Assembly (NCBI GenBank): GCA_039683575.1 | Contig: JBDKRC010000180.1 | Coordinates: 1 to 47,174 of the forward strand | Source of the DNA: Armatimonadia bacterium | GTDB taxonomy: Bacteria > Armatimonadota > Zipacnadia > Zipacnadales > UBA11051 | Direction of reading: 5' to 3' | DNA length: 47,174 bases | Shown here: positions 463 through 21,797 of the stretch, piece after piece | Layout: each line of letters starts with the position of its first letter | Position numbering within the stretch: position 1 is the stretch's first letter | The notes under the pieces: generated by a model | Seen by the model: the letters and a program-made list of their open reading frames with translations, nothing else | What the model was told of the DNA's origin: nothing | Databases searched by the model: none | Program-made: the position numbers and the translations under genes

Positions 463-635
463 AATGCATGGCCTTACTGGCACGACACCACCGGCGCTTG
501 TGAAGCCCGGATGGAGACTGACGTTTCACGACGAGTTCGACCGGCCCCCAGTCGCATGACATGTACTGGCCCGCCGCCTATCGCTCGAGACGAAAGGACT
601 ACCTCAAGCGAACCGGCGGGCAGAGTCGCCGCACG
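463..635 (+). pseudogene. N-terminal fragment of a GH16-like glycoside hydrolase, frameshifted
   Basis: KPGWRLTFHDEFDRP resembles the GH16 N-terminal W-x-L-x-F-x-D-E-F-D motif. Removing one C from the run at ~546-549 continues the frame into QSHDMYWPAAYRS. No catalytic ExDxxE motif follows. Confidence 0.55.
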
Positions 636-674
636 TACCTCATACCATCACGCTTCCCTCAGGAGCCACTGCCT

Positions 675-3039: not shown

Positions 3040-3588
3040 TTACCGAACGGCAGGGAAGTACTTCAGGTAGTTGCCCTGCACATCCTGCTTGGCGAGGAAC
3101 TTGGCGTGGCCATCCACAAACTCGTAGTTGGCGCCGTCGTTGTGGGGGAACCTCATCAGCGACCAGTTGGTGGAGGTGGGCGGGGCAATCAGCGAATCGG
3201 CGTCGCCGATCATGAACGTCTCGGAGGGGCTGGTGATCGTGCCCAGGCTCTTGAAGTCCAGGTATGACCAGTTCCAGCCGTAGTTGCGGCCCGCGAGCCC
3301 TGACTGGCTCGGGCACTTGAGCAACTGGGTGTTCTTCATGTACGGCTGGGTGATGACGTCCCAATAGTACACGCCACCTGAGTCCATGCGATAGGCGAAG
3401 AAAGTCTCGTCATAGTCCTGCGCGTAACTGAGGATCGCCAGCCCGAGCTGCTTTACGTTTGACAGACAACTGCTCTGCCTTGCCTTCTCCCGAGCTTTGG
3501 CGAATACCGGGAAGAGGATCGCTGCCAGAATGGCAATGATGGCAATTACGACCAGAAGCTCGATCAGTGTGAAGCCGCGTCGTCTCAT
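3040..3588 (-). CDS. Prepilin-type N-terminal cleavage/methylation protein, DUF1559-like with H-X9-DG C-terminal motif
   Basis: [10 protein letters not shown] motif, CPS, and C-terminal [22 protein letters not shown] upstream. Confidence 0.93.
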
Positions 3589-5558: not shown

Positions 5559-6260
5559 CTAGTGGGCCGGTGAGCCGTTGGCGTAATACGCGATGTCCAG
5601 GGGCGCCTTCGTGTACTTGACCGGGCCCACGAAGGTCGAGGCCGGATCGTACGCCATCTTGTGCCACTTCGCGTGCCCGTCGGCGTAGACCATGTTGGCG
5701 CCCTCGTTGTGACGGGCGGGGATGAAGGCACTCTGATGCCAGGACGGACAGAAGAAGCGGCTCGAGTTGGAGCTGGGATAATCGACCGGACTGTGTGTCC
5801 AGTCCGAATCCGCCAGCAGCAGTGTCTCGGAGGGATAAACGATGGTCGCCATGGCAGTACCGGCACTGTTGCCAAGGATATTCAGGTTCACGCCGTAGTC
5901 GGTCGGAGCGGGGATATTGCCGCCAGCCGAACTCCAGTAGGCATAGCCGTTGTAACAGGGGCCATCGGCACTGGGACAGCGAAGCACTTGCAGGTTCTTG
6001 ACGTAGGGCTGCAGTAGACCCATCCACATGCAGTAGTAGGTGCGGGGGTTGTCGGCGATATAGTTGGGCGGGATGGTCTCGTCGTAGTCCTGGGCATATT
6101 GCATCATCGCCAGGCCAAGCTGCTTGCAGTTGTTCAGACAGCTGCTCTGTCGCGCCTTCTCACGCGCCTTGGCGAACACCGGGAACAAGATGGCCGCCAG
6201 AATGGCAATGATGGCGATTACGACCAGAAGCTCAATAAGTGTAAAACCGCGTCGTCTCAT
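5559..6260 (-). CDS. Prepilin-type N-terminal cleavage/methylation protein, DUF1559-like with H-X9-DG motif
   Basis: [10 protein letters not shown] motif, CPS, DYGVN and [14 protein letters not shown]. Same GGAGGATATAG-ATG context as 3040..3588. Confidence 0.93.
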
Positions 6261-6657: not shown

Positions 6658-9507
6658 TCACTGCACGCGCACGGTGAAGAGCAACTGTCCGGTCCCGCCG
6701 GTCAAGAGGCTGCCACCGAAGGTCCACACGATGGGACCCGTTCCGCCCACCGGTGGGGCCGTGATGTTGCAGGAGGTCAGATCCGCCGGCAAGGCGCCAT
6801 GTGAGGCCGAGACAAAGACAGTATAGGCGAGTGTGGAGTCATACACTACGAGGTCTTTCAGCGGGTTGCCGGACGTGTTGGCGTACGTGATGGTGTAGGT
6901 CACGTCCTGCCCCGGGGTGACCAGGGTCTTGTCCGGAACCTTCGTCAACGTCAGCCCCGTGTGCTCCGACACTGTCGTGCAGTCCCTGCGAGTAGTGATG
7001 CTGGTCAAGACAGGGGCGGAGTTGGTATAGGCGAAGGTGGCGCTGATGGCGGTGAGGTCAATGGCGCCAAGTGGCGCACTGACCGGCACCACGACCCGGA
7101 GAAGAACTGCGACCGTCTCACCGGCCGAGAGAGTAAGCGGGCCCGTTATGGCGGGTTCGCCCGCATCATAGATGCCATCCCCGTTCGTGTCCCGGTACAG
7201 GATCTGGTTCCAGCCCTCTACCGCCGGGTCCTGGGCCGAATTGAGCGCGAAGGTGACGGTGCCGCCGGAACCCGCACTGAACTGGTGTGCATACCAGACT
7301 ATGCTGCCCGGGATCACCGTGCGCTGCCAGTCCGGCAGAAAGCTGATGCCCTTCACGTCGCCGAAATCGACATTGACGTACTGAACGTCCGCCGCAGGTG
7401 TGAAGCTGACCGTGTCACTGGCACGATCATACGCACCCCCGGTATTGCCTACTGAGGCGCCGGTGGAGGCGTAATCTGCCAGTCCGCTTTCCACGACCTT
7501 CATGGCTGTGCCGACGGCGGTGTAGGGCACCCACAGGGCGTAGCTGCCCTGGGCGTCGGTGGAGGTCGCTTCATAGACCACGTCTGAGGCATTGGTAGCC
7601 TTCATCTCCACACTCGCCAGAGGCGCTTCAGTCCCGTTGCGCAGCCCGTCGTTGGCAACGCCGCTACCCATGCCGTTATCCTCAAACACCATCCCACGAA
7701 GCGTGAACCCGTGCCATAGGCCAAACCTCAGCCCAGTGACACTGGCGGTCGCCACCGTCACGCCAGTGATCTTCTGGTCGGGATGCTCGATCCCGAGCCA
7801 CCCGGACGGCAGGTAGGCAGTGGTGTCGTTGAGGGTACTATTGTCGTCGAGAATGACACTGTAGTCGCCATTGCTGATATTGGCGAAGTCGTAGGCTCCG
7901 CTGGTCGGATCCACGGCCACGGCCCTCACGGCGGCGCCACCGGCGGCGGGCACCAGCTTCGCGTACATCCCGGTCACGCCCGTTCCCGTCTCCATGGAGT
8001 CGAGTTTCTGGTTATGGTTCAGGTCCTCATAGACGGTGCCGGTGACATGGGCGGCAGGCAAGATCAGGACCGTGTCCGCCGCGAAGTTCTGCCTGTGGCA
8101 AGGACTGTCCGTGACGAAGCAACGAAGTACCATCACTGTGGCAGTTCCAACATTCGGGGCCGTAAAGCCGGTGGTCGCCGCAGCGGGATTGCTGAAGGTT
8201 CCCCCGTCCATGCTGGTCCATTGGTAAGTGTAGCCGCCGGCACCGCCACTTGCGATAGCGATCACTGGTGCAGTGGTCCCGCCGACGATCTGAGCTGGCA
8301 CGGTGATGGCTAGCCCCGGTCGGCGGTCGATGCCACTGAGCAAGAGGAAGTTGAGATAAGCACGCTGTGCCGCGACGTCGGCCGTACTGCTGCCGCTGAG
8401 GTCATGGCCCCCTATGTATAGCGCCATGCCACAGCTGCTATCGCCGTACGCCCGGCCGTAGGCGACAGCCGCCGCGGGGCCAGCGGACTTGCCATTCAGG
8501 ACGTCAGACTGCGTGGGATCCCAGACTGCGAGGGTAGTCGTCGGCCGCCACTGCCCACCCAGCGCCGGCATGAAGATCTGCTCCGAACCATCGGTGGTGG
8601 CCCCGTCGAGGGTTGACATGAACTGCATGATCGGGTGCGCGTCGTCCCTGTAGTTGTAGGGCGGGGAACCCTCCTTATGGTCGCCGAACAGTGTCAGTCT
8701 CGGGTCGCTGAGAAAGGCGCACTCATACTGTCCGGTAGCCGGGTTTATGAGGTTCTCGAAGGCACTCACACCGTGACATCCCGAAAAGAAGTACCCTCCG
8801 GCGTGTATGTAGTCGATCAGATAGTGGTGAGTACTCCAGGCCGGATCGGAATGGGGCAGAGAGTAGAGGTCTATGCAACGCGTAAGGTCGCTTGGCAGCC
8901 CAACCTTGTACGAAGTTGTTGGGATGCCTGCGGCATCATAGAAGGGTTTGATCAGATCTTCATTGGCGGTATCAATGAGCGTTCTTGGGAAGTAGGTGAC
9001 GGTGTTGTACACCGGGGCCGTGAAGGAACTGGTGGTCGGTCCGTATACGACCACGCCTTGCGATTTCCAGTTGTTGATGCTTGTCACAACCGAGTTGATG
9101 ACAAACTCCGCCGGCACAATGAAAGAGCCACCGGAGAAACTGATACCGTCGGCAACAAAGTCAACGCCATCCTTGCTCTTGGCGGGGTTGATGCTCCAGT
9201 AGAGCGGGATGCGGCTGTTGGTGACAATGTCATAGACGAGCCCGTAGGGCCGCAGGCCATTGCTGACCGTCTGAGGCACGACCCCCATGTTGATGATATA
9301 GGCGCCGGCAGGGAAGGTAGTGAGTGCCGCCGATGCCGGCACCGTGGCAGCCAGCATGCTGGACGCGAGAAGCAGCGCCCACCACACCACCGGGCGGCGA
9401 CGGCGCGGTACTGGCGCCAGCGCGGCGGGAGTGGCCGTCATCTCCCTGCTATCGCAGTGATACGGTGCCATTGAACCAGTCCTCGTGGGTTCGCACGTGT
9501 TGTTCAC
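6658..9507 (-). CDS. Secreted DUF11/SdrD-B-like domain protein, putative tip adhesin
   Basis: Signal peptide (RRRRPVVWWALLLASSMLAATVPASA), unique N-terminal domain, two SdrD-B-like GxVxED repeats and a C-terminal DUF11 (LTLTK...PGQDVTYTITYAN...VVYD). GTG start overlaps the upstream TGA; the start could be later. Confidence 0.8.
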   Translation of the reverse strand: MNNTCEPTRTGSMAPYHCDSREMTATPAALAPVPRRRRPVVWWALLLASSMLAATVPASAALTTFPAGAYIINMGVVPQTVSNGLRPYGLVYDIVTNSRIPLYWSINPAKSKDGVDFVADGISFSGGSFIVPAEFVINSVVTSINNWKSQGVVVYGPTTSSFTAPVYNTVTYFPRTLIDTANEDLIKPFYDAAGIPTTSYKVGLPSDLTRCIDLYSLPHSDPAWSTHHYLIDYIHAGGYFFSGCHGVSAFENLINPATGQYECAFLSDPRLTLFGDHKEGSPPYNYRDDAHPIMQFMSTLDGATTDGSEQIFMPALGGQWRPTTTLAVWDPTQSDVLNGKSAGPAAAVAYGRAYGDSSCGMALYIGGHDLSGSSTADVAAQRAYLNFLLLSGIDRRPGLAITVPAQIVGGTTAPVIAIASGGAGGYTYQWTSMDGGTFSNPAAATTGFTAPNVGTATVMVLRCFVTDSPCHRQNFAADTVLILPAAHVTGTVYEDLNHNQKLDSMETGTGVTGMYAKLVPAAGGAAVRAVAVDPTSGAYDFANISNGDYSVILDDNSTLNDTTAYLPSGWLGIEHPDQKITGVTVATASVTGLRFGLWHGFTLRGMVFEDNGMGSGVANDGLRNGTEAPLASVEMKATNASDVVYEATSTDAQGSYALWVPYTAVGTAMKVVESGLADYASTGASVGNTGGAYDRASDTVSFTPAADVQYVNVDFGDVKGISFLPDWQRTVIPGSIVWYAHQFSAGSGGTVTFALNSAQDPAVEGWNQILYRDTNGDGIYDAGEPAITGPLTLSAGETVAVLLRVVVPVSAPLGAIDLTAISATFAYTNSAPVLTSITTRRDCTTVSEHTGLTLTKVPDKTLVTPGQDVTYTITYANTSGNPLKDLVVYDSTLAYTVFVSASHGALPADLTSCNITAPPVGGTGPIVWTFGGSLLTGGTGQLLFTVRVQ

Positions 9508-12500
9508 GGTAGCGCCGCCCTGGCAGCAGGCGCGCCGCCGGCCTTCGCTTGCTCACCATCGCCTGATCGCTGGTGAAACTGTGCCGGGAAAGCCGTTTCA
9601 TCGAACTTGAAGCGGATTCGGAGGTAAGGCCCATCGGCCGTGTAGTTCTCGCCAACGAGATCATCATCGTGGAAGCCCGACCAGTTGTAGCCAGCCGCCA
9701 ACCACAGATTCCGCTTGAGCATGTACCCCAGCTCAGTGCCCACGGCCCAGAGTCTGCCGGAGGCGTCCGCAAAGTGGCTGCCGATCACTCCCAGATCAAA
9801 GCGCCGGCCCAGGTCCCTCGTGACCCGGCCTGACAGCAGGCTCGCAATGTGGGAGGTATTCAGGCCATCGGAGCGGTCATCCACCTGTTTCCAGGCGTAA
9901 TGCCCGGTCCAGATGGTTTGCCGATCTGACTGGTAGTTCAGGTCCATGGAGAGGATGTTGGTATGGCGACGAACCTGACAGTCAGGTACGCTGGTATCGT
10001 CGTCACGCAGCAATTCGTATCGCACCAGACCGTTCCAGCGGTCACGGTCGAGGTCGCGATAGGCGGCGCCAAGGCGAAGCCGATCCTGAGTATGCTCGCC
10101 CCCGCCGTCGTAGGAGGCGTTAGTGCGAACGTAGCGTCCGAGCAACGCCCAGTCTTCGTCCAGTTTGCGCGCCAGACCGAGCGTGAGCAGCGTCGAATCA
10201 CTGGTAGCGCCGTCGCGCCACTCGGCCCTCGCCGTTCCCACCCAGAGTGGATCGCGGGTGTATTCGACCGCCATCGTGATGGCCCGAGACCGGTTGTCGT
10301 CCTCCATACCCCTAAGGGGCGTGATACGCTCGAAGCTGGTGTCGACTGCCAGCCCTTCGCTCAGGTGCCACCGATTGCGCAGCCCGATCGCCGCTTCAGT
10401 GTCGCGACCGCTGAAGGCATCCCGGACCCGGTATTCACTGAACAGGTGCCCGTCGCGCATGTAGTCGCTTTCCAAGCCGAAGAGCGTCGTCTGCTGCCGG
10501 TGTGTGCTGTCCAGGGCATAGCGGCCATCTATGGAGGATATCAGCTCATGCCGGGCGTAAAGCCGGGTGCGGTTGGCTATCTGCTGTTCACCGCCCAGCG
10601 CCAGGACACGGCGGCTGGAGTCGTGAACATCCTGTTCATACTCGCCATAGAGGCTCGTTTGCCGCCGGGGTCCGAGTTGCGCGCTGAGACGGCCGCGGAC
10701 AGTGGTGAAGTCGATTTCTTCCTCATCCGACTGGCCCGGTACGGTAGCGGACAGTGATCCCTTCGCGTGGCGCATGCCCAGCTCCAGCAGCATGTTCGAC
10801 CGCAGGCGCTGCTCCAGCGACAACATGTAACCGTTGAGTTCTGTGTCGCTTGCCACGTCCTCAGTGCGGGTTATCTCCCCCAGCAGCCGGCGATCTGAGC
10901 CCAGCGTCTGGGTCGCCTTCACGCAGAACTCCTGTCTGCCGCGGCTGAGTGAGGCCGAGGGATTGTCAAAGGCCTCGTCTGTGCGGGCCGAATATAGCCG
11001 CAGGTTCAGGCGCGGCGAATTGTGCAGGTACTCCAGACGTCTGCCGTCCCCGCGACCGAGGCTGTCGCTGCGCGTCTGAGCCCATTCGGCTATCACCGTG
11101 TCGTACCGGCTTGGCCTGAAGGCCACGCTGGCGCTCCGCAAGTCAAAGGCATCGTCCGGGTTCTGATCATCCACCAGGGTACCCGACAACTCCACCCGGT
11201 CATTCAGCTTCACTCTGCCGGTAGCACCGAAGAGCCAGAACTTGGGGCCGTTGCCGTCCGCCTCATACGTGACGCGGAGGTAGACCGGGTTGAAGTTGCT
11301 GTCGACGCTCGGAACGGGTGTGCGGAGGATGATGCGCCCGGTAAGAGGGTCTATCTCATAGTCCGCAAACCGCAGCAGGGGATCCCTCTTCAAGATGACA
11401 GCCGGCTGCTGACGGTCGCGCGTGATGATCTCCACTTGCTCACTGTTCTCGACAAAGGGCAGCACAGTGAGCGTGAACGGGCCCGAAGTGCCAGAGGCGC
11501 GGAACTCGTCCACAACCTGTTCGGTGCTGTCACGGCTGGCGAACACGTCGAAGATCGAAGACTGATTCTCGATGTGGGAGGCCACGCCGGTCAGGCTGCG
11601 GTAGTAGGAGCCGAGTTCGGCGTATTCGCCGTCCAAACGGGTGCTGTAATCGCCATACATCAGATATGACGGCCCGTGGTCCATGCGCGCGTAAAGCCGG
11701 CTGGTGGACTGTGCGTCGAACCCGCGCAACGATGAGTCGCCATATACGGGGTAGAACTCGTCCGGCTGGATGTCGCGGAAGAGCCGCTGGTCTGCTTCCT
11801 GCTCGGAATCATACCCCATCGTAATCAGATAGTCCTCGCCTACGCGCCCCTTGAGAAACAGCGCTGCCCGCCCGGACAGGCGCCAGTCGCCGTCGCTACT
11901 GACGTGCGTGAGGCTGCGCAACTCGTTCTCAAAGGGATCGAAGGGCTGTACCAGGCCATCGCCCACCGCGCCGGAGCGGAAGTTGAGCTTGGCCTCCAGC
12001 ACGCCCAGGCCCAGCAGCGGGCGCAGGTCTGGCAGGAAACGAACCACGGATTCGCTCTTCAGCAGCCCACTGGACACTATCACTCTGGCGGCTCCCGGCT
12101 CTGCGGGAGCCAGCAGTGCCACCTCTCGGCTGCCGCCCTCGACGAACACTTGCACGCCCGGCTCGTTGGGGTCCAGATCGTCCACATCCCAGCGACCGAG
12201 GCTGGCTTCGAGGGTCACGGGAGTGCGGGCAGAGACCACTGTGCCCTGCTGGTCAGCGATGCTGATGCGGATCGGCACGGCGGTCTTACCATCAGCAGGC
12301 TGGCCCTGGGTTGGCATCTCGACGTTGAGCTTGCCCGGGCGGCCAGGCGCGATGATCGTGATCTCAGCCTTCCCCCTGGCATTGCCGAAGCTGTCGCTCT
12401 CCAGCAATTCGAGCTGGTTGGCGCCCGGCCGCAGCTCCAGACCGATGTACTGGACTACCTGCAGTTGCTTCTCCGGGACCGAGGCCCGCGACGCGACGCG

Positions 12501-15470
12501 GTGAGCTGGGACTTCAGCACCGTTGAGCTTGAGTGTGAGTGAAGACCCCATGCGGCCCTTCGCCTGCACGTTCACCTGCGCCATCGGCATCGTGTCCTGA
12601 TCCTTCAGACCCACGAAACCGAGCGTGTTGTCCAACGTAGGCAGGAGCGCTTCCAGGGGTGCTGTCGCTGCCGCTCGCACCGGCGGATCAGGCAGCGACG
12701 GGTCGGCGAGCTCAGACTCCGACGGCAGTGTTGACCTGTAGATGCGGTCGGATGAGCCCGCATCGGCGCCAATCATCCCGTTGGCCGGGCGTCCCCGGAC
12801 GTCAGACAACTCCGGCGGCAGGCCGTCGGGCGAGACCGTCTCCTGCACCGCCCGGTTCACCTCGGGGACCACGACCTCGCCCAGGCTGCGGCGGCGTTCG
12901 ACCTCGGCACTCAGTGCCGCGGTAGGCTTGACCAGGGCGAAGTTGATCTTCTGCAGTTGTCCGTTCTTGAGGTCTGCAAGGACGCTGCCCCCGTCATCGA
13001 GGTGGCGGCGCGTGATGGGACTGAGGTTCGCGCCTGGCGGCAGCGTGACCGGATCTACCTTCAGGACGCGGCTACCGGAACGCAGGCCATAGAGACTGTA
13101 TTTGCCCTCGCTGTCTGTGACCGCGTAGGTGCCATCTTCAAGATAGATCCTGACGCCGGGCACACCGGGCTCGCTGTGGTCGTGCAGGCCGTTCTCGTTG
13201 CCATCCACGAAGATCCTGCCCACGACCACGGAGCGGTCGGAGAAGACTCCGGCCTCAAGCCGTACTGTCGCCGAGGCGAAGTTCGAGAGCACCGGACCCC
13301 ATGCCGACTCCGCCTCTGCCCGCGCCCTATTGGTAGCATCGCCAAGCACGGCCCCGGGGCCGACGCGTACGCGGTACGTAAGGCGGACCTCGGTCTCCGG
13401 CTCCAGCTCTCCCAACTCGAAGGTCAGGGCGGGGCCTGCCCCGCCGGCGGGGTCCGCAATGGCCTGGCCATCAAGCCGGGCTGTGCCGGCGACATAGGAG
13501 AAGCCCGCTGGCAAGCGGTCGGACAGGCTCACCGCCTGCAGCAGCACGTTGCTCGCGTTGCGGACCTGCAGGCGATAGTCCACGAAGTCGCCGATGGTCA
13601 CGACAGAGCGGGAAGCCTGCTTCTGCACGAAGAGGCCCGTGGGCGGCGGCGCATCCAACGGAATATCAAAGCGGACAAATCCCACAGCATCAGTGATGGT
13701 GAAGCTCCTGCCGTAGGAGGCGTCGGCGCCGATCAGGCGGTCTGACGGTAGCTCAGTCGGTGCCAGGGCGGTCGGGAAATGATAGTTGCCAGGCGGCGCA
13801 ACCACAAACTGATAGGTACTCGCCTTCACCATGCAGAAGGCGAAGCAACCGTTGCTTGCGGTTTCGATGGCACAGGGGGCGGCGGTTACGCCGTCGGCCA
13901 GATACACCACGGCCGGTTCTCCGGGCTTGCCGCCGTTCCCCTCGCCCGTGACATCAATCAGCGTCACCCGGGCTCCGGTGATAGGCTGGTTGGTGTGGCT
14001 GTCGAAAACCACATTCGTCGGGTCCATCTGGAGGCAAGCCTGGGCGGTCTGACCGTCAGATCCCGTGGCTCGCGCCGTGATGGTGTCGTTGGTGATGCTG
14101 TCGATGACGCCATCACCGCTCGACCCCTGCTCGGCCCGCCGCGTCGGCACCGGTGGCACGATCCGGAAGATACCGGTATTGGGGCCAGTCTCCACGGCGG
14201 CAAACGTCTCCACGTCGCCGGTCAGGGCCGAGCTAAATGTGATCGTCACAGTCTCGACGACAGCCGGTTCCTTATTGTCGTAAGCGATAAGGGCCTGCAC
14301 ATATAGGGGGGTGCCTACAGCGCCAACGCAGGTGGTGCGCGCAAAGGTGCCATCGACGTAGAAGGCGACTTGCGGCGGCAGCGTCGCCAGGACCAGTTCC
14401 ACCCGGTTGGAGGGTGCCTCCCCGGGGCGGTCGGTCACCGGATCGGTGTACTGTACCCACGCGATATTGGGGATCGTCCCTGAGGCAATGTCGCTGATGC
14501 GCACGGCGAACCCAAAGCCAAAGCCGTTCCCGGGAACGGCGGATTCCACCCCATAGCCGACTGCATCAATACTACTCAGATCCGACGGGGCGGCGGAGAC
14601 GTAAGTGTCAGCCGGAGCGCCCGAAAGGTGATACAGAGGGACGCCGCTCCCGGGGTCCGAGAGACTCGCGAAGGTGGTGTTCACCGGGATGGCATCGCGA
14701 AAGCAGACCAGCGAGCGGGTCTGCCCGTCAACAGTAATGGAATGTGGACCTGGCTGAACCCGTCCCTCCAGGTCGGCCCTGAGAGTGAAGGTGACGAGCT
14801 GCCCCCTCTCCGGGCTCAGATCACTCGCGCTCTTAGTCACCTTCCACGTGACCGTACCGATGGCCCGGACACAATCGGTATTGGATACGGTCAGCCCCTG
14901 CAGCACGGTCTTGGCCGTGACCTTGACGCGCGCCTCGCAGCCCGCCCCGGCGGCTCCAAGCACCCGGCCCTCGACCACCAGGTCCAGGCAGGCCTCTGGT
15001 TCCAACTGTACCGGCGTCGTGGGCAGGATGGTGGGTTCGCCGGGATCCGCCACTCCGCTGCCATTGACGTCATGCACCAGTCGCAGACCACCGAGGTCGG
15101 AATCGTCGGCAGGCAGATTCTCCAGGCTCAGCAGGCACTCGCTGGTAACGTTGCCGGTGTTGGTCAGGCAGTGCGGCAGGCAGGCAATGGTGCCCACCGG
15201 GGCCTCGATGGAGTTGTCAGCGACGAGACTGAGAGCCTCCAGGGCTTGGATCTGGACAACGACGGTGTTGGAGCGCACATTCAACTGCACTCCGGTGACT
15301 GAATCAGTGTAGGTCAGGTCAGCGTAGTTGCGGATGGAGATGCCCGCCAGAGGCTGTGGGCCCTGTTTCTGTCCAGTCCACCCCAGTTGCCCCAGGCACA
15401 GGCACAGGACAACGGCCAGCCCGATAAGGGGCCTGGGAGAGGCTGCACCTGATGGATAGTGGCTAATCAT
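9504..15470 (-). CDS. Very large outer-membrane protein: N-terminal DUF11/SdrD-B/Ig-like domains plus C-terminal predicted beta-barrel
   Basis: 2015-aa ORF (longest start 15551, ATG 15470 preferred). Two complete DUF11 repeats, GRIFVDGNENG SdrD-B-like domain, PADGKTAV Ig-like domain, then several hundred residues of amphipathic strands ending in YLRIRFKFDE. Confidence 0.8.
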   Translation of the reverse strand: MISHYPSGAASPRPLIGLAVVLCLCLGQLGWTGQKQGPQPLAGISIRNYADLTYTDSVTGVQLNVRSNTVVVQIQALEALSLVADNSIEAPVGTIACLPHCLTNTGNVTSECLLSLENLPADDSDLGGLRLVHDVNGSGVADPGEPTILPTTPVQLEPEACLDLVVEGRVLGAAGAGCEARVKVTAKTVLQGLTVSNTDCVRAIGTVTWKVTKSASDLSPERGQLVTFTLRADLEGRVQPGPHSITVDGQTRSLVCFRDAIPVNTTFASLSDPGSGVPLYHLSGAPADTYVSAAPSDLSSIDAVGYGVESAVPGNGFGFGFAVRISDIASGTIPNIAWVQYTDPVTDRPGEAPSNRVELVLATLPPQVAFYVDGTFARTTCVGAVGTPLYVQALIAYDNKEPAVVETVTITFSSALTGDVETFAAVETGPNTGIFRIVPPVPTRRAEQGSSGDGVIDSITNDTITARATGSDGQTAQACLQMDPTNVVFDSHTNQPITGARVTLIDVTGEGNGGKPGEPAVVYLADGVTAAPCAIETASNGCFAFCMVKASTYQFVVAPPGNYHFPTALAPTELPSDRLIGADASYGRSFTITDAVGFVRFDIPLDAPPPTGLFVQKQASRSVVTIGDFVDYRLQVRNASNVLLQAVSLSDRLPAGFSYVAGTARLDGQAIADPAGGAGPALTFELGELEPETEVRLTYRVRVGPGAVLGDATNRARAEAESAWGPVLSNFASATVRLEAGVFSDRSVVVGRIFVDGNENGLHDHSEPGVPGVRIYLEDGTYAVTDSEGKYSLYGLRSGSRVLKVDPVTLPPGANLSPITRRHLDDGGSVLADLKNGQLQKINFALVKPTAALSAEVERRRSLGEVVVPEVNRAVQETVSPDGLPPELSDVRGRPANGMIGADAGSSDRIYRSTLPSESELADPSLPDPPVRAAATAPLEALLPTLDNTLGFVGLKDQDTMPMAQVNVQAKGRMGSSLTLKLNGAEVPAHRVASRASVPEKQLQVVQYIGLELRPGANQLELLESDSFGNARGKAEITIIAPGRPGKLNVEMPTQGQPADGKTAVPIRISIADQQGTVVSARTPVTLEASLGRWDVDDLDPNEPGVQVFVEGGSREVALLAPAEPGAARVIVSSGLLKSESVVRFLPDLRPLLGLGVLEAKLNFRSGAVGDGLVQPFDPFENELRSLTHVSSDGDWRLSGRAALFLKGRVGEDYLITMGYDSEQEADQRLFRDIQPDEFYPVYGDSSLRGFDAQSTSRLYARMDHGPSYLMYGDYSTRLDGEYAELGSYYRSLTGVASHIENQSSIFDVFASRDSTEQVVDEFRASGTSGPFTLTVLPFVENSEQVEIITRDRQQPAVILKRDPLLRFADYEIDPLTGRIILRTPVPSVDSNFNPVYLRVTYEADGNGPKFWLFGATGRVKLNDRVELSGTLVDDQNPDDAFDLRSASVAFRPSRYDTVIAEWAQTRSDSLGRGDGRRLEYLHNSPRLNLRLYSARTDEAFDNPSASLSRGRQEFCVKATQTLGSDRRLLGEITRTEDVASDTELNGYMLSLEQRLRSNMLLELGMRHAKGSLSATVPGQSDEEEIDFTTVRGRLSAQLGPRRQTSLYGEYEQDVHDSSRRVLALGGEQQIANRTRLYARHELISSIDGRYALDSTHRQQTTLFGLESDYMRDGHLFSEYRVRDAFSGRDTEAAIGLRNRWHLSEGLAVDTSFERITPLRGMEDDNRSRAITMAVEYTRDPLWVGTARAEWRDGATSDSTLLTLGLARKLDEDWALLGRYVRTNASYDGGGEHTQDRLRLGAAYRDLDRDRWNGLVRYELLRDDDTSVPDCQVRRHTNILSMDLNYQSDRQTIWTGHYAWKQVDDRSDGLNTSHIASLLSGRVTRDLGRRFDLGVIGSHFADASGRLWAVGTELGYMLKRNLWLAAGYNWSGFHDDDLVGENYTADGPYLRIRFKFDETAFPAQFHQRSGDGEQAKAGGAPAARAALP

Positions 15471-15581
15471 GGCGGACAGTCCCTCTGGGGTTCTCCGCCG
15501 GCTTCCACATGCTTGTGGCATATGGAAGCCGGCGGCTGACTGCATAGACAAGCGATCTCGCAGGCTCTTGCCTCTGAACTG

Positions 15582-18233
15582 CTACTGCGTGATCTTCACC
15601 CCAAAGTAGACCGTGGCGCTGTCACCCGCGCCCAGAGTTCCAATGTTGGCAACGATGCTGCCCGCCGCGCCATCAGCCGGGGCGACGGCCGCGTGCTGGG
15701 TAGCGTCGGCCAGCACGTACGTCGCCGCACCAGTCGGGGCAACCGTGCCGTCTCCGTTGTCATACAGCGTGAACGCCGGCGTAGCATCGGTCACTACGAC
15801 GTTCAGGGCGGTAGCGATGCCGGTGTTGGTGACGACCAGCTTGTAGCGCACGCACTGACCCGGCAGGCCGTCGATGTTGCTGGCGACATAGGCACCCTCG
15901 GGCGCTCCATCAGCGTTGGCATCGAGAGCCTGCAGCTTCTGCAGGGTAACGTCACCCGCGATGACGGTGGTATTGTTGGTGGCCTTCGCCGGCGCCGGAA
16001 CTGCGCCACTGTAGCCCGTGTTGCTGGTGGTGGCTGTGACGGTGGTTATGTTCTGACTGCCCATGGGCACACCAGGAGACGCGTATACCACTACGAATAG
16101 TGTGGCAGACTCTCCGAGATCCAGCCCCGCGGCAGTGCTGGCACCGTTCGTGCCGCCAGTCAGTACGCTCAGGTCCTGGATCATGATGTCCCCGGCGCCG
16201 AGCACACCGTCGTTGTCCTTGTCCCAATACAGGGCGGAGGTGAAGCCACTGGTGGAGTTCGCCAGCGACAGCGAGACGTCGCTGCCCACATGGTCGCCCT
16301 CGACCAGGTTGCTCTGGTTGGTGATGGTGTGCGAGTAGACCACCGAGCCGCCTGGATACAGCTGCCCGATGTTGTTCGGCGTGATCGTCAGGCCGCGCAC
16401 CGCGTTGACGGTCACGGCATCATGCTTCCAGTCGTAGGAGGCGGTGGTCGGCGAGATTGCCCGGAAGTACAGGTCGTAAGTCCCTGCCAGCATCCCTACC
16501 GGGAGGGTGACCTCCGCATTCACCTGCATGGCGGAGTTGGCGTTGACCATGCCGGTGTTGGAGATGACCGTGCCAGCGGTGTTCTTGAACAGCACGGATA
16601 CTCCCGCCGGCAGTGTGATGCTGCCCAGGGTGGCATCAGAAGTGACCTGCAGGTTGTAGGTATTAGCCACATCACTTGTATTGTTCACGAACAGGCTGAA
16701 GGTCTGCGTTGTACCGGGATTGCCGGCTATGGTGGTGACCGCAGTCACTTCAGGTCCTGCCCCTGCGCCGGTAGCAGCGGGGTCGCCCAGGGCGGCGCCA
16801 TTGGTGATGTCAACTGTGCTGCCCACGATCTCCCCGAGTGTGTCAGTCGCCACTGCGGACACCGTGGTATCATTCGCCGAGGTCGCGCGCTTCTGCACAA
16901 CGCAGTCGGCCGTGCCTGAGGCACTCGCCGGCAGGAACGCCTTGAGGATGACGCTGTACGCGGCCCCGGGGGCCAGAGGACCCGTGTCGGGGATGCCATT
17001 GCCGTTGGTGTCCAGCAACTGCGACACGCCGCCTGACTTGTACAGCACGAAGTTGGTCCCCGCCGGGAAGGTATTGCCCGGCTCGATGGTGATGTCGAAC
17101 GTGTCGGTGGCAGTGCCGGTATTGGTAATCACGTTCTCAAACGTGACCCATGAGCCCTGATTGGCACTCGCCTCCGTGTCGCCGGTCGCCGTCACACCGG
17201 CGGTCGCGGTGACAAGGAAGGTGACCACGTTGGTCTGGGTGCTGATGGTGTTGGCGGCACCGTCTTCATACGAAACGTTGGCGACGTTGTTGATGGGTCC
17301 CGGAGGCGCGCTGGCACTGACCATCACCTGGAACGTCAACGTTCCCGAATCGCCTGAGGGCATGCTGGCGATGGTAGCGGTGACACGCCCGGCCGTCGTG
17401 ATGTTGTAGTCGTAGACGATCCCGGCGGGATCCCCGAGGGCTGCGTCGGTCAGGGACGTGCCCGACTTGCTCCACAGCCCCGAGCCTGCGACGTAGGTCA
17501 TGTTCGCGGGGATGAGATCGGTAATCACCACGTTCTTGGCTTCGAGGTTGCCGGTATTGGTGTACTGGATGGTGTAGGTTCGAGGGCCGCTACCCGCGAG
17601 ACCGGAGGCCAGGTCAATCGACTTCAGCGCGGTGACGACCGCATTGCTGGTGACCTGCGCGGTGTCGGTGTTTGTCTGCGTGACGCTGGGTGTGAAAGCG
17701 CTGGCTCCCGTCAGCGTGATCTGCCCCGAATTCCCCGCAACCGCTGTCGCCGGCACAGTGGCCACGACCACCACCCGGAAGGTCGACCCGGCCGTCAGCG
17801 GAAGAGTCGCGGCGATCGGGGTCAGGTTGTCCGGCAGGCCGTCGCCGTTGGTGTCGGCGTAGATCCTGACGTTCTGCAGATCGAAGTTGTCGCCGGCAAG
17901 TTGGGCGAACGAGAGATTGAAGGTGTCTGAGCCATTCCCGGTATTGGCCAAGGTATGCGGGAAAGCAACCTGCCCTCCCGGCGTTACGTATTTCGTGTTG
18001 TCCTGCACCAGCGTAAAGGCCGCGACCTGTTGGACCTCCACGTAGATGATGTTGGAAGTCACTTCATGCTGGACGCCTGAGGCATCGGTATACGTGGCCG
18101 TTGCCTGGTTACCGATCATGGACCCGGCCGGGGGGAGTGCCGCCAGCCCCACCGTGGTCGCCATGACCACTGCCGCTAGTACCCCTGCGATCATCAAACC
18201 TACCCTCTTGGGCGGTACGGTCATCGGGTACAT
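15582..18233 (-). CDS. Secreted multi-DUF11/Ig-repeat protein, putative major fibre subunit
   Basis: Strong RBS GGAGGT and a signal peptide. Thr/Ala/Val-rich tandem Ig-like repeats (xNTGN..DTF), DxNxDG Ca-binding-like loops and DUF11 motifs. Confidence 0.88.
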   Translation of the reverse strand: MYPMTVPPKRVGLMIAGVLAAVVMATTVGLAALPPAGSMIGNQATATYTDASGVQHEVTSNIIYVEVQQVAAFTLVQDNTKYVTPGGQVAFPHTLANTGNGSDTFNLSFAQLAGDNFDLQNVRIYADTNGDGLPDNLTPIAATLPLTAGSTFRVVVVATVPATAVAGNSGQITLTGASAFTPSVTQTNTDTAQVTSNAVVTALKSIDLASGLAGSGPRTYTIQYTNTGNLEAKNVVITDLIPANMTYVAGSGLWSKSGTSLTDAALGDPAGIVYDYNITTAGRVTATIASMPSGDSGTLTFQVMVSASAPPGPINNVANVSYEDGAANTISTQTNVVTFLVTATAGVTATGDTEASANQGSWVTFENVITNTGTATDTFDITIEPGNTFPAGTNFVLYKSGGVSQLLDTNGNGIPDTGPLAPGAAYSVILKAFLPASASGTADCVVQKRATSANDTTVSAVATDTLGEIVGSTVDITNGAALGDPAATGAGAGPEVTAVTTIAGNPGTTQTFSLFVNNTSDVANTYNLQVTSDATLGSITLPAGVSVLFKNTAGTVISNTGMVNANSAMQVNAEVTLPVGMLAGTYDLYFRAISPTTASYDWKHDAVTVNAVRGLTITPNNIGQLYPGGSVVYSHTITNQSNLVEGDHVGSDVSLSLANSTSGFTSALYWDKDNDGVLGAGDIMIQDLSVLTGGTNGASTAAGLDLGESATLFVVVYASPGVPMGSQNITTVTATTSNTGYSGAVPAPAKATNNTTVIAGDVTLQKLQALDANADGAPEGAYVASNIDGLPGQCVRYKLVVTNTGIATALNVVVTDATPAFTLYDNGDGTVAPTGAATYVLADATQHAAVAPADGAAGSIVANIGTLGAGDSATVYFGVKITQ

Positions 18234-18332
18234 CTTCCTACCTCCTCGCCAGTTATGGTCTCGTCAAATCTCAGGATGTGGAACAATCAGTAAAGCACTT
18301 ACGGGACGAACTCCCCCTGCGGCGCCTCCAGC

Positions 18333-18836
18333 TTAGCCTCGGTTGGCCACCGTCACGCGAGCCAACAATTGGACCGGCTTGCCTGGCTTGAGACTGTCAA
18401 TGATCCAGCGCAGCGCGAGGTACTCAGAAGCCGGAACCTCAACTTCGCTGACTTGCCCGGAAGGCGAGGTCACCTTGCGCTTTAGCGGTATCAGGCTGAA
18501 CTTGACCGCATCCTGACTTGCCATTTGCGGCGCGGGGGTCGCACTGTTCTTGAGGTAACACGTGCCCTGCGGCAGCGGCAGCGTCGCTGCGACCCTGGTC
18601 ATTGCGTACGCTGCACGGTTCGTGTAGGAGAGCCGGTATTCGAGCACTTCACCCGGGTACACTTTCGTCGCCGGCGTGAACTGCTCCACCCCTTTGTTGT
18701 CCACCGTCACCTTCAAGACATCCAGCTGCACTCTCATCGGCGGGTCCGCTGCCCTCAGCACGCTGAACGAAGTCAGCACAACGACTGTTAGTGCTGCCAG
18801 ACCAACTGACAACCGGCGCATACGTGGGATCATCAT
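18333..18836 (-). CDS. Small secreted single DUF11-like domain protein
   Basis: ATG at 18836/18833 after AGGGAGG. Signal peptide, then PGEVLEYRLSYTN...LPQGTCY...LRWIIDSLKPG...ARVTV. Confidence 0.8.
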   Translation of the reverse strand: MMIPRMRRLSVGLAALTVVVLTSFSVLRAADPPMRVQLDVLKVTVDNKGVEQFTPATKVYPGEVLEYRLSYTNRAAYAMTRVAATLPLPQGTCYLKNSATPAPQMASQDAVKFSLIPLKRKVTSPSGQVSEVEVPASEYLALRWIIDSLKPGKPVQLLARVTVANRG

Positions 18837-18932
18837 CCGCCTCCCTCTCATATTTGATGCGTGACTCAACCGCGCATCACCCACTTCACGACGAGATGTC
18901 ATAGATGAAGTTCTAGAAGCGTGCGACAAATA

Positions 18933-19130: not shown

Positions 19131-21797
19131 ATGAGCGCGCGCAAACGACCGCCGGGCAATCTGCTTCGGCTGCGGCCGCCCGGAATCACCGGGGTGATTC
19201 CGCGCCCGCGTCTTGCCGACAAGCTTGCTGCTGTTGAGGCAAGCCGCGTGGTCCTGATGGTCGCGCCGGCAGGCAGTGGCAAGACTACGGCGGCAGCTCA
19301 GTGGCTTCACGAGGTTGGCCATCCCTTCGCCTGGGTCTCACTGGACGCACACCACGATGATCTGAGTACCTTCACTACTGTCGTCTCAGACGCCCTGGAG
19401 CTTGGTCTGCAGCGCGCCCCGCGCCACCTGCGACTCCTGCTACACGCAACCCCTCCATTGGTGCCGGAGACCGTCTCGGACGCCCTGGTCGCCGACCTCG
19501 CCGCAGCAGACGACCCCTTCATCCTCACACTTGACGACTGCCACTATCTGCATTCGCCGCCGATGCTCGAGACGATGCGGCTGGCGATCAGGTACCTGCC
19601 TGACAACGTGCAGCTATTCCTGCTGTCACGACGCCCACTCGATTTCGCCCTGACACGGTTGCGCCTTTCCAACGCCATCGCCGAGCTTGGAGCCGCTGAT
19701 CTGCGTTTCTGCTTCGATGAGATTCAGGCTCTGGCTGGGCGCGAGCTAGGGGTAGTACTCGGGGATGAGGAGCTCAATGCCCTGGAGGAGCGTACCAGGG
19801 GCTGGGCGGCGGGATTGCGCCTCGCCCTGTTGGGAATGCAGCAGGGCGCCTCGCCCACGGAGTTCCTGCACAGGTTCAGCGGCCGCCACCGGTATGTGCA
19901 CCAGTACTTCACTGAGGAGGTCCTGAAGCAAGAACCGCCCCACATCCACAGCTTTCTCCTGCATACCTGCATCGCCGACGCCGTGTGTGAGGATCTGTGT
20001 GCGGCCGTGCTGCCACGGGACGGGACGCCGCGAGCGACCCTGAGGGAGGTAGTGCAGCGCGGCCTCTTCACCTTCTCACGGGATGATGAGGACCGCTGGT
20101 TCTCCTACCATCCTCTGCTCAGGGACTCCCTTGCCACCCGGCTGGCGCAGGTTGAGGACCCCGAGGCCATCAGCGCACTCCATAGCCGCGCTGCCGATTG
20201 GTTTGCGGCCCATCACCGGCCGGAGGAGGCAATCTGTCATGCCGCCATCGGCGGCCGTCGAGACCTGGCCGTCGGAATGGTAGCAGAGCAGCTTCCCCGC
20301 TGCCTCGCGGATGATGACCACCACACCCTGGCGCGATGGCTGGGCCGTTTCAGCCCCCGGGACATCGAGAACAGCATCCACCTGACGTTTGCACAGGCCT
20401 GCGTCCATGCGCGCAACTGCCAACCCGCCAACTTGTCCGCGGTGCTTCACAAGCTCGAGAGTTTCCCCCAGAAACAGCGTAGTATTCTCAGTCGCCCACC
20501 GTATCTCTGCCATCTGGCGCGCCTCAAACAGGAAGTCGCCATCTGGCAAGGCGACTGGCACACCGTGTTGGGCCTGGCTCAGCAGATGAGAAGCCTGGCG
20601 CCATTTGAGCTTTCACCGACTCACATATGCACGGGCCTCGGCGCCCTTGCCCTGCAGAGACTCGGACGACTTGAGGAGGCACTCCGCTGGTTAGGTGATC
20701 TCCGATCTACGGCCAGCGCGGACGCCATCGAGTTCTTTGACATCTGCGACGGTCTTATTCGCGTTGCTGAGGCCGATCTGCCTGAGTTGCAGCGCCTCAC
20801 CAGCCGCCTCAATGAGATGGCGGAACACACAGCACGGCCCAGAGCGAGGCTCTGGTCACACTTCTTCGGGGGGCTGCTCTGCTATGAATCTGGGCGCCTG
20901 CCCGAGGCGCTCGCGGAGTTCAGGCAGGGCTTGGAGCTTTCCGTTCACGGACCGGCGGAACTGCGGGCGGAGTGTCTGGTGGGACTGGCTGTCTCACACC
21001 TTGGGGTCGGCGACCTCAACGCCGCCGAGGACGTCGCCTGCGCGCTGGAGCGGGAGAATGCGACTCTGGGTTCCGATAGCTATGCTCTGCAACTGCGGTG
21101 GCTCCGGATGCGCATAGCCCTGGGGCGCGGACAACTCGCCGGAGGTCAGGTGCTACCGAGACCACTCAACCCGCCTCGGTTTGGGATGCTGCCATCGGTG
21201 TTGCTGCCCCATCACCTTTGCGCCCGGGCTGCTGTGCTGCATGGCGATGAGCAGGACGCGGGCAACGCACTTGAGTTGCTCGACCAGGTTCAGGAGGCGG
21301 CGGAAGCTGCTCACGATAGGCGGGCGGGGATCGGGGTCAAAGCCGTCCGGGCGCTGGCCCTGGCCAAACTCGGCCAACCCGAGCCGGCCGCCGCGGAACT
21401 ACAGGAAGCACTGCAGCACGGCGCTCCCGGCGACTTTGTCCGTACCTTCGTTGATCTCGGCGCGCCAATGAAGGCCCTGCTGCAAACGGCGACGCTTCCG
21501 GCAACCCACAGGCCGAGAGTTGAGGCTCTGCTGGCAGCCTTCACTAGACACGCGCCGGGAAAACAGCCCGGCCTGCTCAGCGAGCGCGAAGTCGAGGTCC
21601 TGGAGTTGCTGGCCACTCAGCTGTCGAGGAAGGAAATCGCCCAGCACCTGCACATCTCTGTGCTGACCGTGCGCAGTCACAACTACCGCATCTACAAGAA
21701 GTTGGGGGTCAAGACGCGCAAGCAGGCGCTCAGCGAAGCTCGGCGACGGCAACTGCTGCCACCGCCACAGACCGAGGCCGGCACTGACGAGGGATGA
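19131..21797 (+). CDS. MalT-like LuxR-family (STAND/LAL) ATP-dependent transcriptional regulator
   Basis: Walker A APAGSGKTT, WVSLD, Walker B LTLDDCH, TRGWAAGLRL, helical sensor region and C-terminal LuxR HTH (LSEREVEVLELL...IAQHLHISVLTVRSH...IYKKLGV). Confidence 0.93.
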   Translation: MSARKRPPGNLLRLRPPGITGVIPRPRLADKLAAVEASRVVLMVAPAGSGKTTAAAQWLHEVGHPFAWVSLDAHHDDLSTFTTVVSDALELGLQRAPRHLRLLLHATPPLVPETVSDALVADLAAADDPFILTLDDCHYLHSPPMLETMRLAIRYLPDNVQLFLLSRRPLDFALTRLRLSNAIAELGAADLRFCFDEIQALAGRELGVVLGDEELNALEERTRGWAAGLRLALLGMQQGASPTEFLHRFSGRHRYVHQYFTEEVLKQEPPHIHSFLLHTCIADAVCEDLCAAVLPRDGTPRATLREVVQRGLFTFSRDDEDRWFSYHPLLRDSLATRLAQVEDPEAISALHSRAADWFAAHHRPEEAICHAAIGGRRDLAVGMVAEQLPRCLADDDHHTLARWLGRFSPRDIENSIHLTFAQACVHARNCQPANLSAVLHKLESFPQKQRSILSRPPYLCHLARLKQEVAIWQGDWHTVLGLAQQMRSLAPFELSPTHICTGLGALALQRLGRLEEALRWLGDLRSTASADAIEFFDICDGLIRVAEADLPELQRLTSRLNEMAEHTARPRARLWSHFFGGLLCYESGRLPEALAEFRQGLELSVHGPAELRAECLVGLAVSHLGVGDLNAAEDVACALERENATLGSDSYALQLRWLRMRIALGRGQLAGGQVLPRPLNPPRFGMLPSVLLPHHLCARAAVLHGDEQDAGNALELLDQVQEAAEAAHDRRAGIGVKAVRALALAKLGQPEPAAAELQEALQHGAPGDFVRTFVDLGAPMKALLQTATLPATHRPRVEALLAAFTRHAPGKQPGLLSEREVEVLELLATQLSRKEIAQHLHISVLTVRSHNYRIYKKLGVKTRKQALSEARRRQLLPPPQTEAGTDEG

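Follow-up and report, generated by a model that had tools for sequence, protein, structure and literature searches.

What four neighbouring genes build together, when the termini of their products look like separate pieces of one domain, is the question raised by a locus of an Armatimonadia bacterium (contig JBDKRC010000180.1 of assembly GCA_039683575.1). The whole contig stretch of 47,174 nucleotides (nt), called the window below, was analysed. Its minus strand carries four co-oriented open reading frames (ORFs), which encode a small protein, a shaft subunit, a barrel protein, and a tip protein. We propose, with a probability of roughly 60%, that these four genes are a self-contained cassette for a surface fibre that is assembled by split-domain complementation, is probably held together by covalent joints, and is rooted in a β-barrel.

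The spacing of the genes is tight, with 99 nt and 30 nt between the first three and a 4-nt overlap between the barrel protein and tip genes. Inspection of the sequence by eye indicated a signal-peptide-like hydrophobic segment at the N-terminal end of all four proteins. A Pfam scan located DUF11 (PF01345) in each of them: the scores of the shaft, barrel protein, and tip were 35.4, 51.3, and 24.9 bits, respectively, against a gathering score of 24.6 bits, and the match of the small protein lay below this cut-off at 17.5 bits. SdrD_B was also found in the barrel protein and the tip.

The termini of the shaft carry the central observation. Its ORF ends 2 residues past the strand after which a complete DUF11 domain would continue with its final hairpin. 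Within the last 122 amino acids (aa) of the shaft, the Pfam match covered positions 15–84 of the 114-position profile (E = 3.7e-6). The corresponding matches covered positions 2–84 in the last 110 aa of the tip (E = 2.1e-7) and positions 9–84 in residues 86–194 of the small protein (E = 0.0052, sub-cut-off), and all three ended where the protein ended. The small protein was also related to the complete internal domain of the shaft with a probability of 95% by hhalign. For the opposite end, Pfam gave nothing useful on two isolated 38-aa donor peptides because they are too short, and hence profile–profile comparison and a custom hidden Markov model (HMM) were used. In the hhalign comparison, the last domain of the shaft (residues 760–883) aligned to positions 13–107 of its 147-residue complete internal domain (97%, E = 9e-11), and residues 33–70, which come straight after the signal peptide, aligned to positions 114–144 (83%, E = 9e-6). 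As the two termini map to complementary parts of one domain, we consider both ends to be the two halves of a single domain, an acceptor at the C-terminus and a donor hairpin at the N-terminus.

The two halves are distributed unevenly among the other proteins. An HMM of the shaft donor matched the N-terminus of the barrel protein of the window (residues 66–102) with an E value of 1.4e-7 among 74 sequences, and it matched 53 of these 74 barrel N-termini at E < 1e-3. At E < 0.01, none of 42 tips and none of 80 small proteins were matched. Orphan donors and orphan acceptors therefore exist, and they can be satisfied only by binding between chains. An earlier note on this DNA had claimed that the 883-aa shaft ends before its last two strands and starts, when mature, with the two that are missing, that the 2015-aa protein starts with the same donor, that the 949-aa protein lacks a donor and ends in an incomplete acceptor, and that the small protein is an acceptor only. 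The profile boundaries and donor matches given above bear out every one of these statements.

The termini were also conserved, to a degree beyond chance. All 120 aligned shafts end at the same strand, and 37 of 37 complete tip genes stop 1–3 residues past that strand. The shaft termini were among the best conserved stretches of the 120-sequence alignment, and in the donor the residues N42, Y48, D50, T59, S60, and N61 were invariant.

Relatives of the shaft were widespread, with at least 865 at E ≤ 0.001 among 8000 scored candidates. Excluding the protein of the window itself, the best 120 relatives were 853–924 aa long and 47–56% identical across several phyla. In the source records they carry only DUF11 or repeat-protein names, as the earlier note had expected. 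Synteny was scanned with one genome per species: among the pattern stretches in these genomes, 383 of 435 encoded a shaft relative, and the locus counts given here and below are from the 80 best loci kept. The order small protein, shaft, barrel protein, tip was maintained across these loci in several phyla, an outcome that answers the suggestion of the same note to check gene order. The small gene lay immediately upstream of the shaft gene in 77 of 80 loci, and the other three consisted of two over-long ORF calls and one cut contig. The barrel gene lay downstream of the shaft gene in 73 of 80, the remaining seven being near a contig end or read as one frame, and of the 54 loci whose barrel gene is complete, 41 had a tip-like gene after it. 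The cassette occurs in bacteria of soil, freshwater, and groundwater that belong to Verrucomicrobiota, Armatimonadota, Eisenbacteria, Beta- and Gammaproteobacteria, and Thermodesulfovibrionales. No fifth conserved gene was found in the flanks of the 80 loci; the commonest neighbours of the cassette were a response regulator (17/80) and a sensor-like protein (15/80).

In one of these loci (L026, positions 9764–15412), the shaft and the barrel protein were read in one open frame of at least 1882 aa, which may be a natural fusion or an artefact of assembly or frame.

We then considered whether the two halves fit each other. The shaft monomer was predicted by AlphaFold2 (AF2) with a mean predicted local distance difference test score (pLDDT) of 91.8 and a predicted template modelling score (pTM) of 0.51. 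The model contained six β-domains, preceded by an N-terminal four-segment hairpin region with a strand pattern like the tail of a complete domain. All 50 structural matches listed for this model fell on residues 69–757, mostly on the internal domain, and Foldseek with the whole shaft returned generic multi-Ig (immunoglobulin-like) proteins only. The model of residues 199–342 resembled BcpA (3rkp_A) with a Z score of 15.7 and a root-mean-square deviation (rmsd) of 2.2 over 133 aligned residues, and EbpB, SpaD, and RrgB with Z scores of 12.8–14.4; the matched parts are CnaA-type domains of sortase pilins.

For complex prediction, which the earlier note had asked for, shaft residues 757–883 were combined with residues 33–200, that is, the donor together with the first domain, so that the hairpin was free to stay on its own chain. 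The three runs for this shaft head and shaft tail scored 0.87, 0.88, and 0.88, compared with 0.00 for the best of three controls; they shared at least 93% of contacts, and the pLDDT of the partners was at least 90. In the model, donor strand 44–49 pairs with acceptor strand 809–816, and donor residues 60–61 and 65–66 contact acceptor residues 764–766 and 787–789. The predicted interface comprises residues 33–34, 38–51, 53–56, and 58–68 on the donor side and residues 760–770, 783–791, 795–801, 807–822, 867, 875, and 881–883 on the acceptor side. The predicted joint thus supports binding of the two halves without showing it.

The termini could also be read in another way, as belonging to four independent surface proteins in which the shaft hairpin closes its own last domain and the other termini have no role in assembly. 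The hairpin of the AF2 monomer was predicted at a pLDDT of 83–93 and the same model had a weak hinge at residues 758–761. Both features fit closure within the chain, and the confident hairpin may reflect docking of this kind, which counts against exchange between chains. However, this explanation leaves the tip and the small protein with an open acceptor and no donor, and the barrel protein with a donor and no acceptor, and both the gene order and the termini are conserved in 80 loci. We therefore regard four independent proteins as very improbable and complementation in trans between the cassette proteins as likely.

The split domain belongs to a family known for intramolecular bonds. DUF11 has been renamed CLIPPER, and in the crystal structure 9IFR, as described in the available part of PMC12617251, an isopeptide bond joins Lys715 and Asn806 with Asp748 as the catalytic residue; of the nine strands, the last but one carries the Asn. 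The Lys of the triad is placed in strand 1 and the Asn in strand 8. The same part of that article mentions DUF11 domains without the isopeptide signature and refers to its Table S2 for a list of those with it. A phmmer search of the PDB sequences with the shaft internal domain did not recover 9IFR, and the triad was consequently placed by the residue numbers and strand description of the paper, not by direct alignment. In the internal domain, the triad is formed by K204, D239, and N316, each at least 90% conserved in 120 sequences. In the split domain, its members are divided between the two chains. The acceptor Lys (K766 in the shaft) was present in 78 of 80 shafts and in 37 of 37 tips, and the same counts were obtained for the acceptor Asp (D816 in the shaft). 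The donor Asn, N42 of the shaft, was present in 120 of 120 shafts, and an equivalent Asn was found in 48 of 57 aligned barrel proteins. The split domain thus appears to be an isopeptide domain whose conserved Lys and Asp are supplied by the acceptor and whose conserved Asn comes from the donor, which would make the joints probably covalent. This isopeptide nature is an addition beyond the earlier note.

The same fibre could be built with non-covalent joints, by donor-strand complementation without an isopeptide, as in chaperone-usher pili. The bond itself is inferred, and, as stated above, members of the family without the signature are described in the available part of PMC12617251. Nine of the 57 aligned barrel donors lack the Asn, and MAFFT placed the shaft Lys two columns off the Lys of the complete domain, so that its register is ambiguous. 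The equivalence of the Lys residues is drawn from a shared strand pattern (hydrophobic-x-hydrophobic-x-Lys) and from the hhalign alignment of tip Lys856 with Lys204 of the complete domain. In addition, the pair Lys766–Asn42 was not among the 25 best pairs listed by the complex predictor. On the other side stand the retention of Lys and Asp in nearly all shaft acceptors and in every tip acceptor, the presence of Asn in every shaft donor, and the loss of the Asp in 80 of 80 copies of the paralogous small protein, which has no such need. From these conserved residues, we lean slightly towards a covalent lock at the joints and consider purely non-covalent joints unlikely, although they are the strongest of the alternatives.

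The small protein differs from the other acceptors at exactly these positions. The column of the catalytic Asp contained no Asp but a hydrophobic residue in all 80 sequences (Leu 70, Val 7, Met 2, Ile 1), with Leu in the window, and no Lys was conserved. Judged by its residues, the small protein looks like an acceptor that is able to bind but not to bond. An Asp-less acceptor encoded by the first gene of the cassette suggests a reversible holder of donor hairpins. The model is at its weakest where it has this protein bind donors reversibly, as a chaperone or removable cap and not as a structural one, and we put this role forward tentatively, at slightly less than even odds.

In the small proteins of the 80 loci, an insertion that is not present in the other acceptor domains also carries the motif Glu-Tyr-Arg-x-Leu-Arg-Trp, which is strongly conserved and lies some 25 residues ahead of the last strand.

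The C-terminal part of the barrel protein was modelled by AF2 with 51 homologues at a pLDDT of 79.3 and a pTM of 0.72. About 38 long strands were counted in the model by DSSP, with a small β-sandwich inserted after the sixth. If the model is right, the barrel would be larger than any other single-chain barrel known to us. Pfam Usher (PF00577) matched neither the whole protein at E ≤ 0.01 nor any of 51 barrel domains at E ≤ 1, and the autotransporter β-domain (PF03797) was weakly matched in 1 of 51 (best E = 1.1e-4) and not in the barrel of the window. The Pfam matches that were obtained were weak and of a generic outer-membrane type, with OMP_b-brl in 16 of 51. No relative was found among the PDB sequences with the barrel profile, and Foldseek returned generic large barrels only (template modelling (TM) score ≤ 0.26). 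In structural comparison, the pore of PapC (2vqi_A) stood in the first row (Z = 13.3, rmsd 8.1, 316 aligned residues) and FimD reached a Z score of 11.5. VDAC and Tom40, with Z scores of 12–13, were tied with the ushers, so that the usher likeness of the barrel is a lead and not a finding.

The barrel family comprised 4644 cluster representatives at E ≤ 0.001 and 2534 at E ≤ 1e-30, and the part N-terminal to the barrel ranged from about 60 to 3700 residues. Among the representatives P0141, P0170, P0198, P0239, and P0265, and P0148, P0249, P0251, and P0269, some consisted of the barrel only (774–897 aa) and others had 400–1100 aa after it; these could be fragments, barrel-only forms, or barrel–tip fusions. 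Longer barrel proteins of 2129–2295 aa were encoded in the Betaproteobacteria loci L045, L050, L062, L067, L068, L076, and L077, where no tip-like gene was seen in the 1.8–4.8 kb left after the barrel gene. In L068, the barrel gene was followed by a different ORF of approximately 370 aa, relatives of which occurred in five loci.

Conservation of the tip was confined to its C-terminal ~460 aa, which form the stalk and the acceptor. The heads varied between loci and included extra DUF11 repeats, SpaA_4, and a right-handed β-helix, and the tips, by longest ORF, ranged in length from 908 to about 3470 aa. The head of the tip of the window (residues 55–440) resembled, in predicted structure, an unnamed surface-protein domain of Bacteroidota with TM scores of 0.86–0.90, which is a lead only.

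Here, we propose a model of assembly by summarizing the above results. Two polypeptides would share each joint, which would be one CLIPPER domain with a CnaA-like sandwich of nine strands. The acceptor, at the C-terminus of the shaft and of the tip, would supply strands 1–7 with the bond-forming Lys and the catalytic Asp, and the donor, at the N-terminus of the mature shaft and of the mature barrel protein, would supply strands 8–9 with the bond-forming Asn. The donor hairpin of one protein would complete the acceptor of the next, giving the order tip, shaft in one or more copies, and barrel protein, and the C-terminal barrel would root the fibre in the outer membrane. Exchange would be followed by a lock ("exchange and lock"): in the completed domain, Lys, Asp, and Asn would form an isopeptide autocatalytically, as in ordinary CLIPPER domains, where all three belong to a single chain. 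The small protein would hold donor hairpins reversibly in the periplasm and thereby block premature or within-chain closure, and the variable head of the tip would be the functional end, serving as an adhesin or an enzyme. Polymerisation, the extracellular location, and export through the barrel are features that we infer. The earlier note had deduced that the barrel protein carries a donor, that the shaft is self-complementary, and that the tip and small proteins are acceptors only, and here the profiles, the donor distribution, the synteny, and the complex model agree.

The number of shafts in each fibre would separate this model from a modular adhesin of fixed composition, in which a single long stalk is formed by a barrel protein, a shaft, and a tip (or small protein), each in one copy. 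Such a stalk would already be long, since the shaft has six domains and the barrel protein brings its own stalk of about 1070 aa. Nevertheless, the donor of the shaft fits its own acceptor in the complex prediction described above (0.88 versus 0.00 for controls), nothing evident would stop the addition of a second shaft, and the shaft is the best conserved part, with 47–56% identity across phyla, as major subunits are. We thus consider the fixed stalk unlikely and a polymer of more than one shaft somewhat the more probable outcome.

Several further points weigh against the model, in addition to those given with the monomer prediction and the triad. The evidence base is in silico throughout. 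The mark used to calibrate the complex scores was reached by 58 of 80 solved complexes and 2 of 110 mismatched pairs, counts that apply only roughly because our own alignments were supplied. The predictor may have rebuilt a known fold from two pieces, in which case its score would speak for complementarity and not for assembly in the cell; fold completion is, at the same time, precisely what the split-domain hypothesis states. With the donor HMM, 21 of the 74 barrel N-termini did not reach E < 1e-3. A tip-like gene was missing in 13 of 54 loci, where only 0.5–5 kb of sequence was left past the barrel gene. Finally, the model does not account for the solubility of the acceptors before assembly or for the passage of the shaft and tip across the outer membrane.

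Among known fibres, the chaperone-usher pili are the closest in logic. The barrel of their usher has 24 strands, a plug domain lies between strands 6 and 7, and a PapD-like two-domain periplasmic chaperone donates a strand to the subunits. The cassette shares with them an incomplete Ig-like subunit made whole by its neighbour's N-terminal extension (here in silico), a tip whose functional head is N-terminal and whose C-terminal domain is an acceptor only, and a large predicted outer-membrane barrel encoded in the operon and modelled with a small β-sandwich insert after about six strands. In contrast, the donor is a two-strand hairpin instead of a single strand, each subunit is made of six domains over about 850 aa, and covalent joints are probable. 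The barrel, for which the model gives about 38 strands instead of 24, lacks C-terminal domains and is fused to a donor-bearing stalk. No PapD-like chaperone was matched by any of the four proteins, nor did the flanks of the 80 loci contain an extra conserved gene. The fibre logic would be that of chaperone-usher pili, built, as far as the sequences indicate, from non-homologous parts and with the chaperone missing or replaced. The general description of chaperone-usher pili used in this comparison comes in part from sections of PMC11821415.

Type V pili of Bacteroidia also differ, in that they have a lipoprotein precursor and C-terminal donor strands, whereas the signal peptide of the shaft contains no Cys and its donor is N-terminal. 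The statement of the earlier note that the system is not homologous to chaperone-usher or type V pili holds at the level of sequence.

Two precedents for covalent strand exchange were found. According to the available part of a preprint (bioRxiv 10.1101/2024.11.04.621531), the donor strand at the N-terminus of BsaA of C. perfringens, a member of the TasA family, enters its neighbour, and a bond is formed between N35 and K74 with the assistance of E56; Sulfolobus threads, as far as the source text at hand describes them, are a second case of "donor-strand exchange and lock". The cassette is like BsaA, as portrayed in that text, in that a donor Asn would bond to an acceptor Lys helped by an acidic residue. 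BsaA and the threads differ in fold from the present case and come from cells that lack an outer membrane; the domain considered here is a CnaA-like CLIPPER of outer-membrane hosts, and the cassette also encodes a giant barrel dedicated to anchoring, a separate tip whose head varies, and a paralogous acceptor devoid of the Asp. No TasA-family match was found in the four proteins with Pfam and NCBIfam.

With regard to the domain itself, the CLIPPER stalk domains of fibrillar adhesins (9IFR) are of the same family and, in the available part of PMC12617251, have the same Lys/Asp/Asn triad; the internal domain of the shaft is an ordinary complete member. The bonds there are within one chain, and the survey in that part of the article covers intramolecular bonds only, whereas the domain here is cut between strands 7 and 8 and distributed over two gene products. 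The sortase pili (BcpA, SpaD, RrgB) are likewise covalent fibres of CnaA/CnaB-type domains and gave the best match to the shaft internal domain (Z = 12.8–15.7). They differ in that the shaft and tip end 1–3 residues past strand 7 without a sorting signal, and in that the link here would be autocatalytic and inside a domain. No sortase gene was conserved in the flanks of the 80 loci. The nearest man-made analogue is SpyTag/SpyCatcher, an engineered split CnaB domain.

Two further candidates, tafi (with DUF1102 subunits) and the grappling hook of Litorilinea (one giant DUF11 protein), were set aside as other systems on the basis of the portions of their descriptions available. A description of the four-gene operon was not found in the literature searched, the coverage of which left out most subscription journals and the supplements.

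A more far-reaching interpretation would be a further class of pilus in outer-membrane bacteria, in which a natural split isopeptide domain, an evolved counterpart of SpyTag/SpyCatcher, covalently polymerises 850-aa subunits without sortase, chaperone-usher, or type IV machinery. The ~38-strand barrel would then have two roles, as the pore that exports folded tip and shaft subunits and as the last subunit, ending growth by giving its N-terminal hairpin to the last shaft, and the Asp-less small paralogue would be a chaperone of a new kind, for donor strands rather than for acceptor grooves, and would set timing or length. We consider this whole combination speculative and rather less probable than not.

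The coordinates of the cassette are given in Table 1. Some of the starts differ from the longest ORFs. The longest ORF of the small gene spans 18333–18929, and its likely start Met is at 18836, the same as in the public gene call. The true start of the barrel protein is probably within 15470–15551, and the public gene call places the start of the tip at residue 13 (~9471). A scan for promoters and terminators was not above chance, with 9 terminator-like sites against 6.8 ± 2.4 expected, and hence nothing was concluded on subunit ratios.

Table 1 Positions of the cassette genes and their parts in the window
Feature	Position	Strand	Description
Small protein	18333..18836	-	Signal peptide and one DUF11-like domain without the last hairpin; acceptor only
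Shaft subunit, 883 aa	15582..18233	-	Signal peptide, donor hairpin, six Ig-like domains, the last an incomplete acceptor
Shaft donor hairpin, residues 33–67	18033..18137	-	Corresponds to strands 8–9 of a CLIPPER domain; Asn42 at 18108–18110
Complete internal CLIPPER (DUF11) domain of shaft, residues 199–346	17196..17639	-	Lys204/Asp239/Asn316 triad
Shaft acceptor domain, residues 757–883	15585..15965	-	CLIPPER without strands 8–9; Lys766 at 15936–15938, Asp816 at 15786–15788
Barrel protein, 2015 aa (longest ORF)	9504..15551	-	Signal peptide, donor hairpin, Ig-like stalk of ~1070 aa, C-terminal giant β-barrel
Barrel protein donor hairpin, residues 66–102	15246..15356	-	Asn75 at 15327–15329; donor HMM match
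Predicted outer-membrane barrel, residues 1173–2015	9507..12035	-	~38 strands; AF2 model
Small β-sandwich insert of barrel	~11301-11525	-	After the sixth strand (AF2 model)
Tip protein, 949 aa (longest ORF)	6658..9507	-	Signal peptide, variable head 55–440, conserved stalk, acceptor domain
Tip acceptor domain, residues 837–949	6661..6999	-	CLIPPER without strands 8–9; Lys856 at 6940–6942, Asp890 at 6838–6840

The flanks of the cassette in the window carry several other genes. A MalT-like regulator of the LuxR family (AAA_16, TPR_MalT, GerE) is encoded at 19131–21797 (+), divergent from the cassette, and was beside the cassette in none of the 80 loci. Downstream of the cassette, two prepilin-like genes at 5559–6260 (-) and 3040–3588 (-) encode an N-terminal methylation motif and DUF1559. 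The regulator and prepilin-like neighbours of the window were next to the cassette in only 0 or 1 of 80 loci. Three ORFs at 561–2930 (+), 3729–5342 (-), and 23541–26645 (+), of 789, 537, and 1034 aa, respectively, had no Pfam match at E ≤ 0.001; a relative of the 789-aa ORF with 28% identity was located upstream of the cassette in a single locus (L003). The GC skew changed from about -0.16 at 22–26 kb to +0.16 to +0.28 at 30–42 kb, with a G+C content of up to 0.63–0.68, and this shift at 22–42 kb is probably a switch of the coding strand.

On the in silico support given above, the system is best described as a donor-strand-complemented fibre whose building principle is a split isopeptide domain and whose root is a giant barrel. 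If this is true, thousands of proteins labelled "DUF11 domain-containing" or "beta strand repeat-containing" would be parts of one fibre system, and bacteria with an outer membrane would possess covalent pili that need no sortase. It would also mean that, in evolution, a simple cut between two strands can turn isopeptide domains with a bond inside one chain into joints between chains, and protein engineering would gain, in the two halves, a natural pair of parts that ligate themselves. Carriers of the cassette are in culture, for example, strains of Thiobacillus denitrificans, Uliginosibacterium, Azoarcus, Aquincola, and Polaromonas, which makes the system directly testable.

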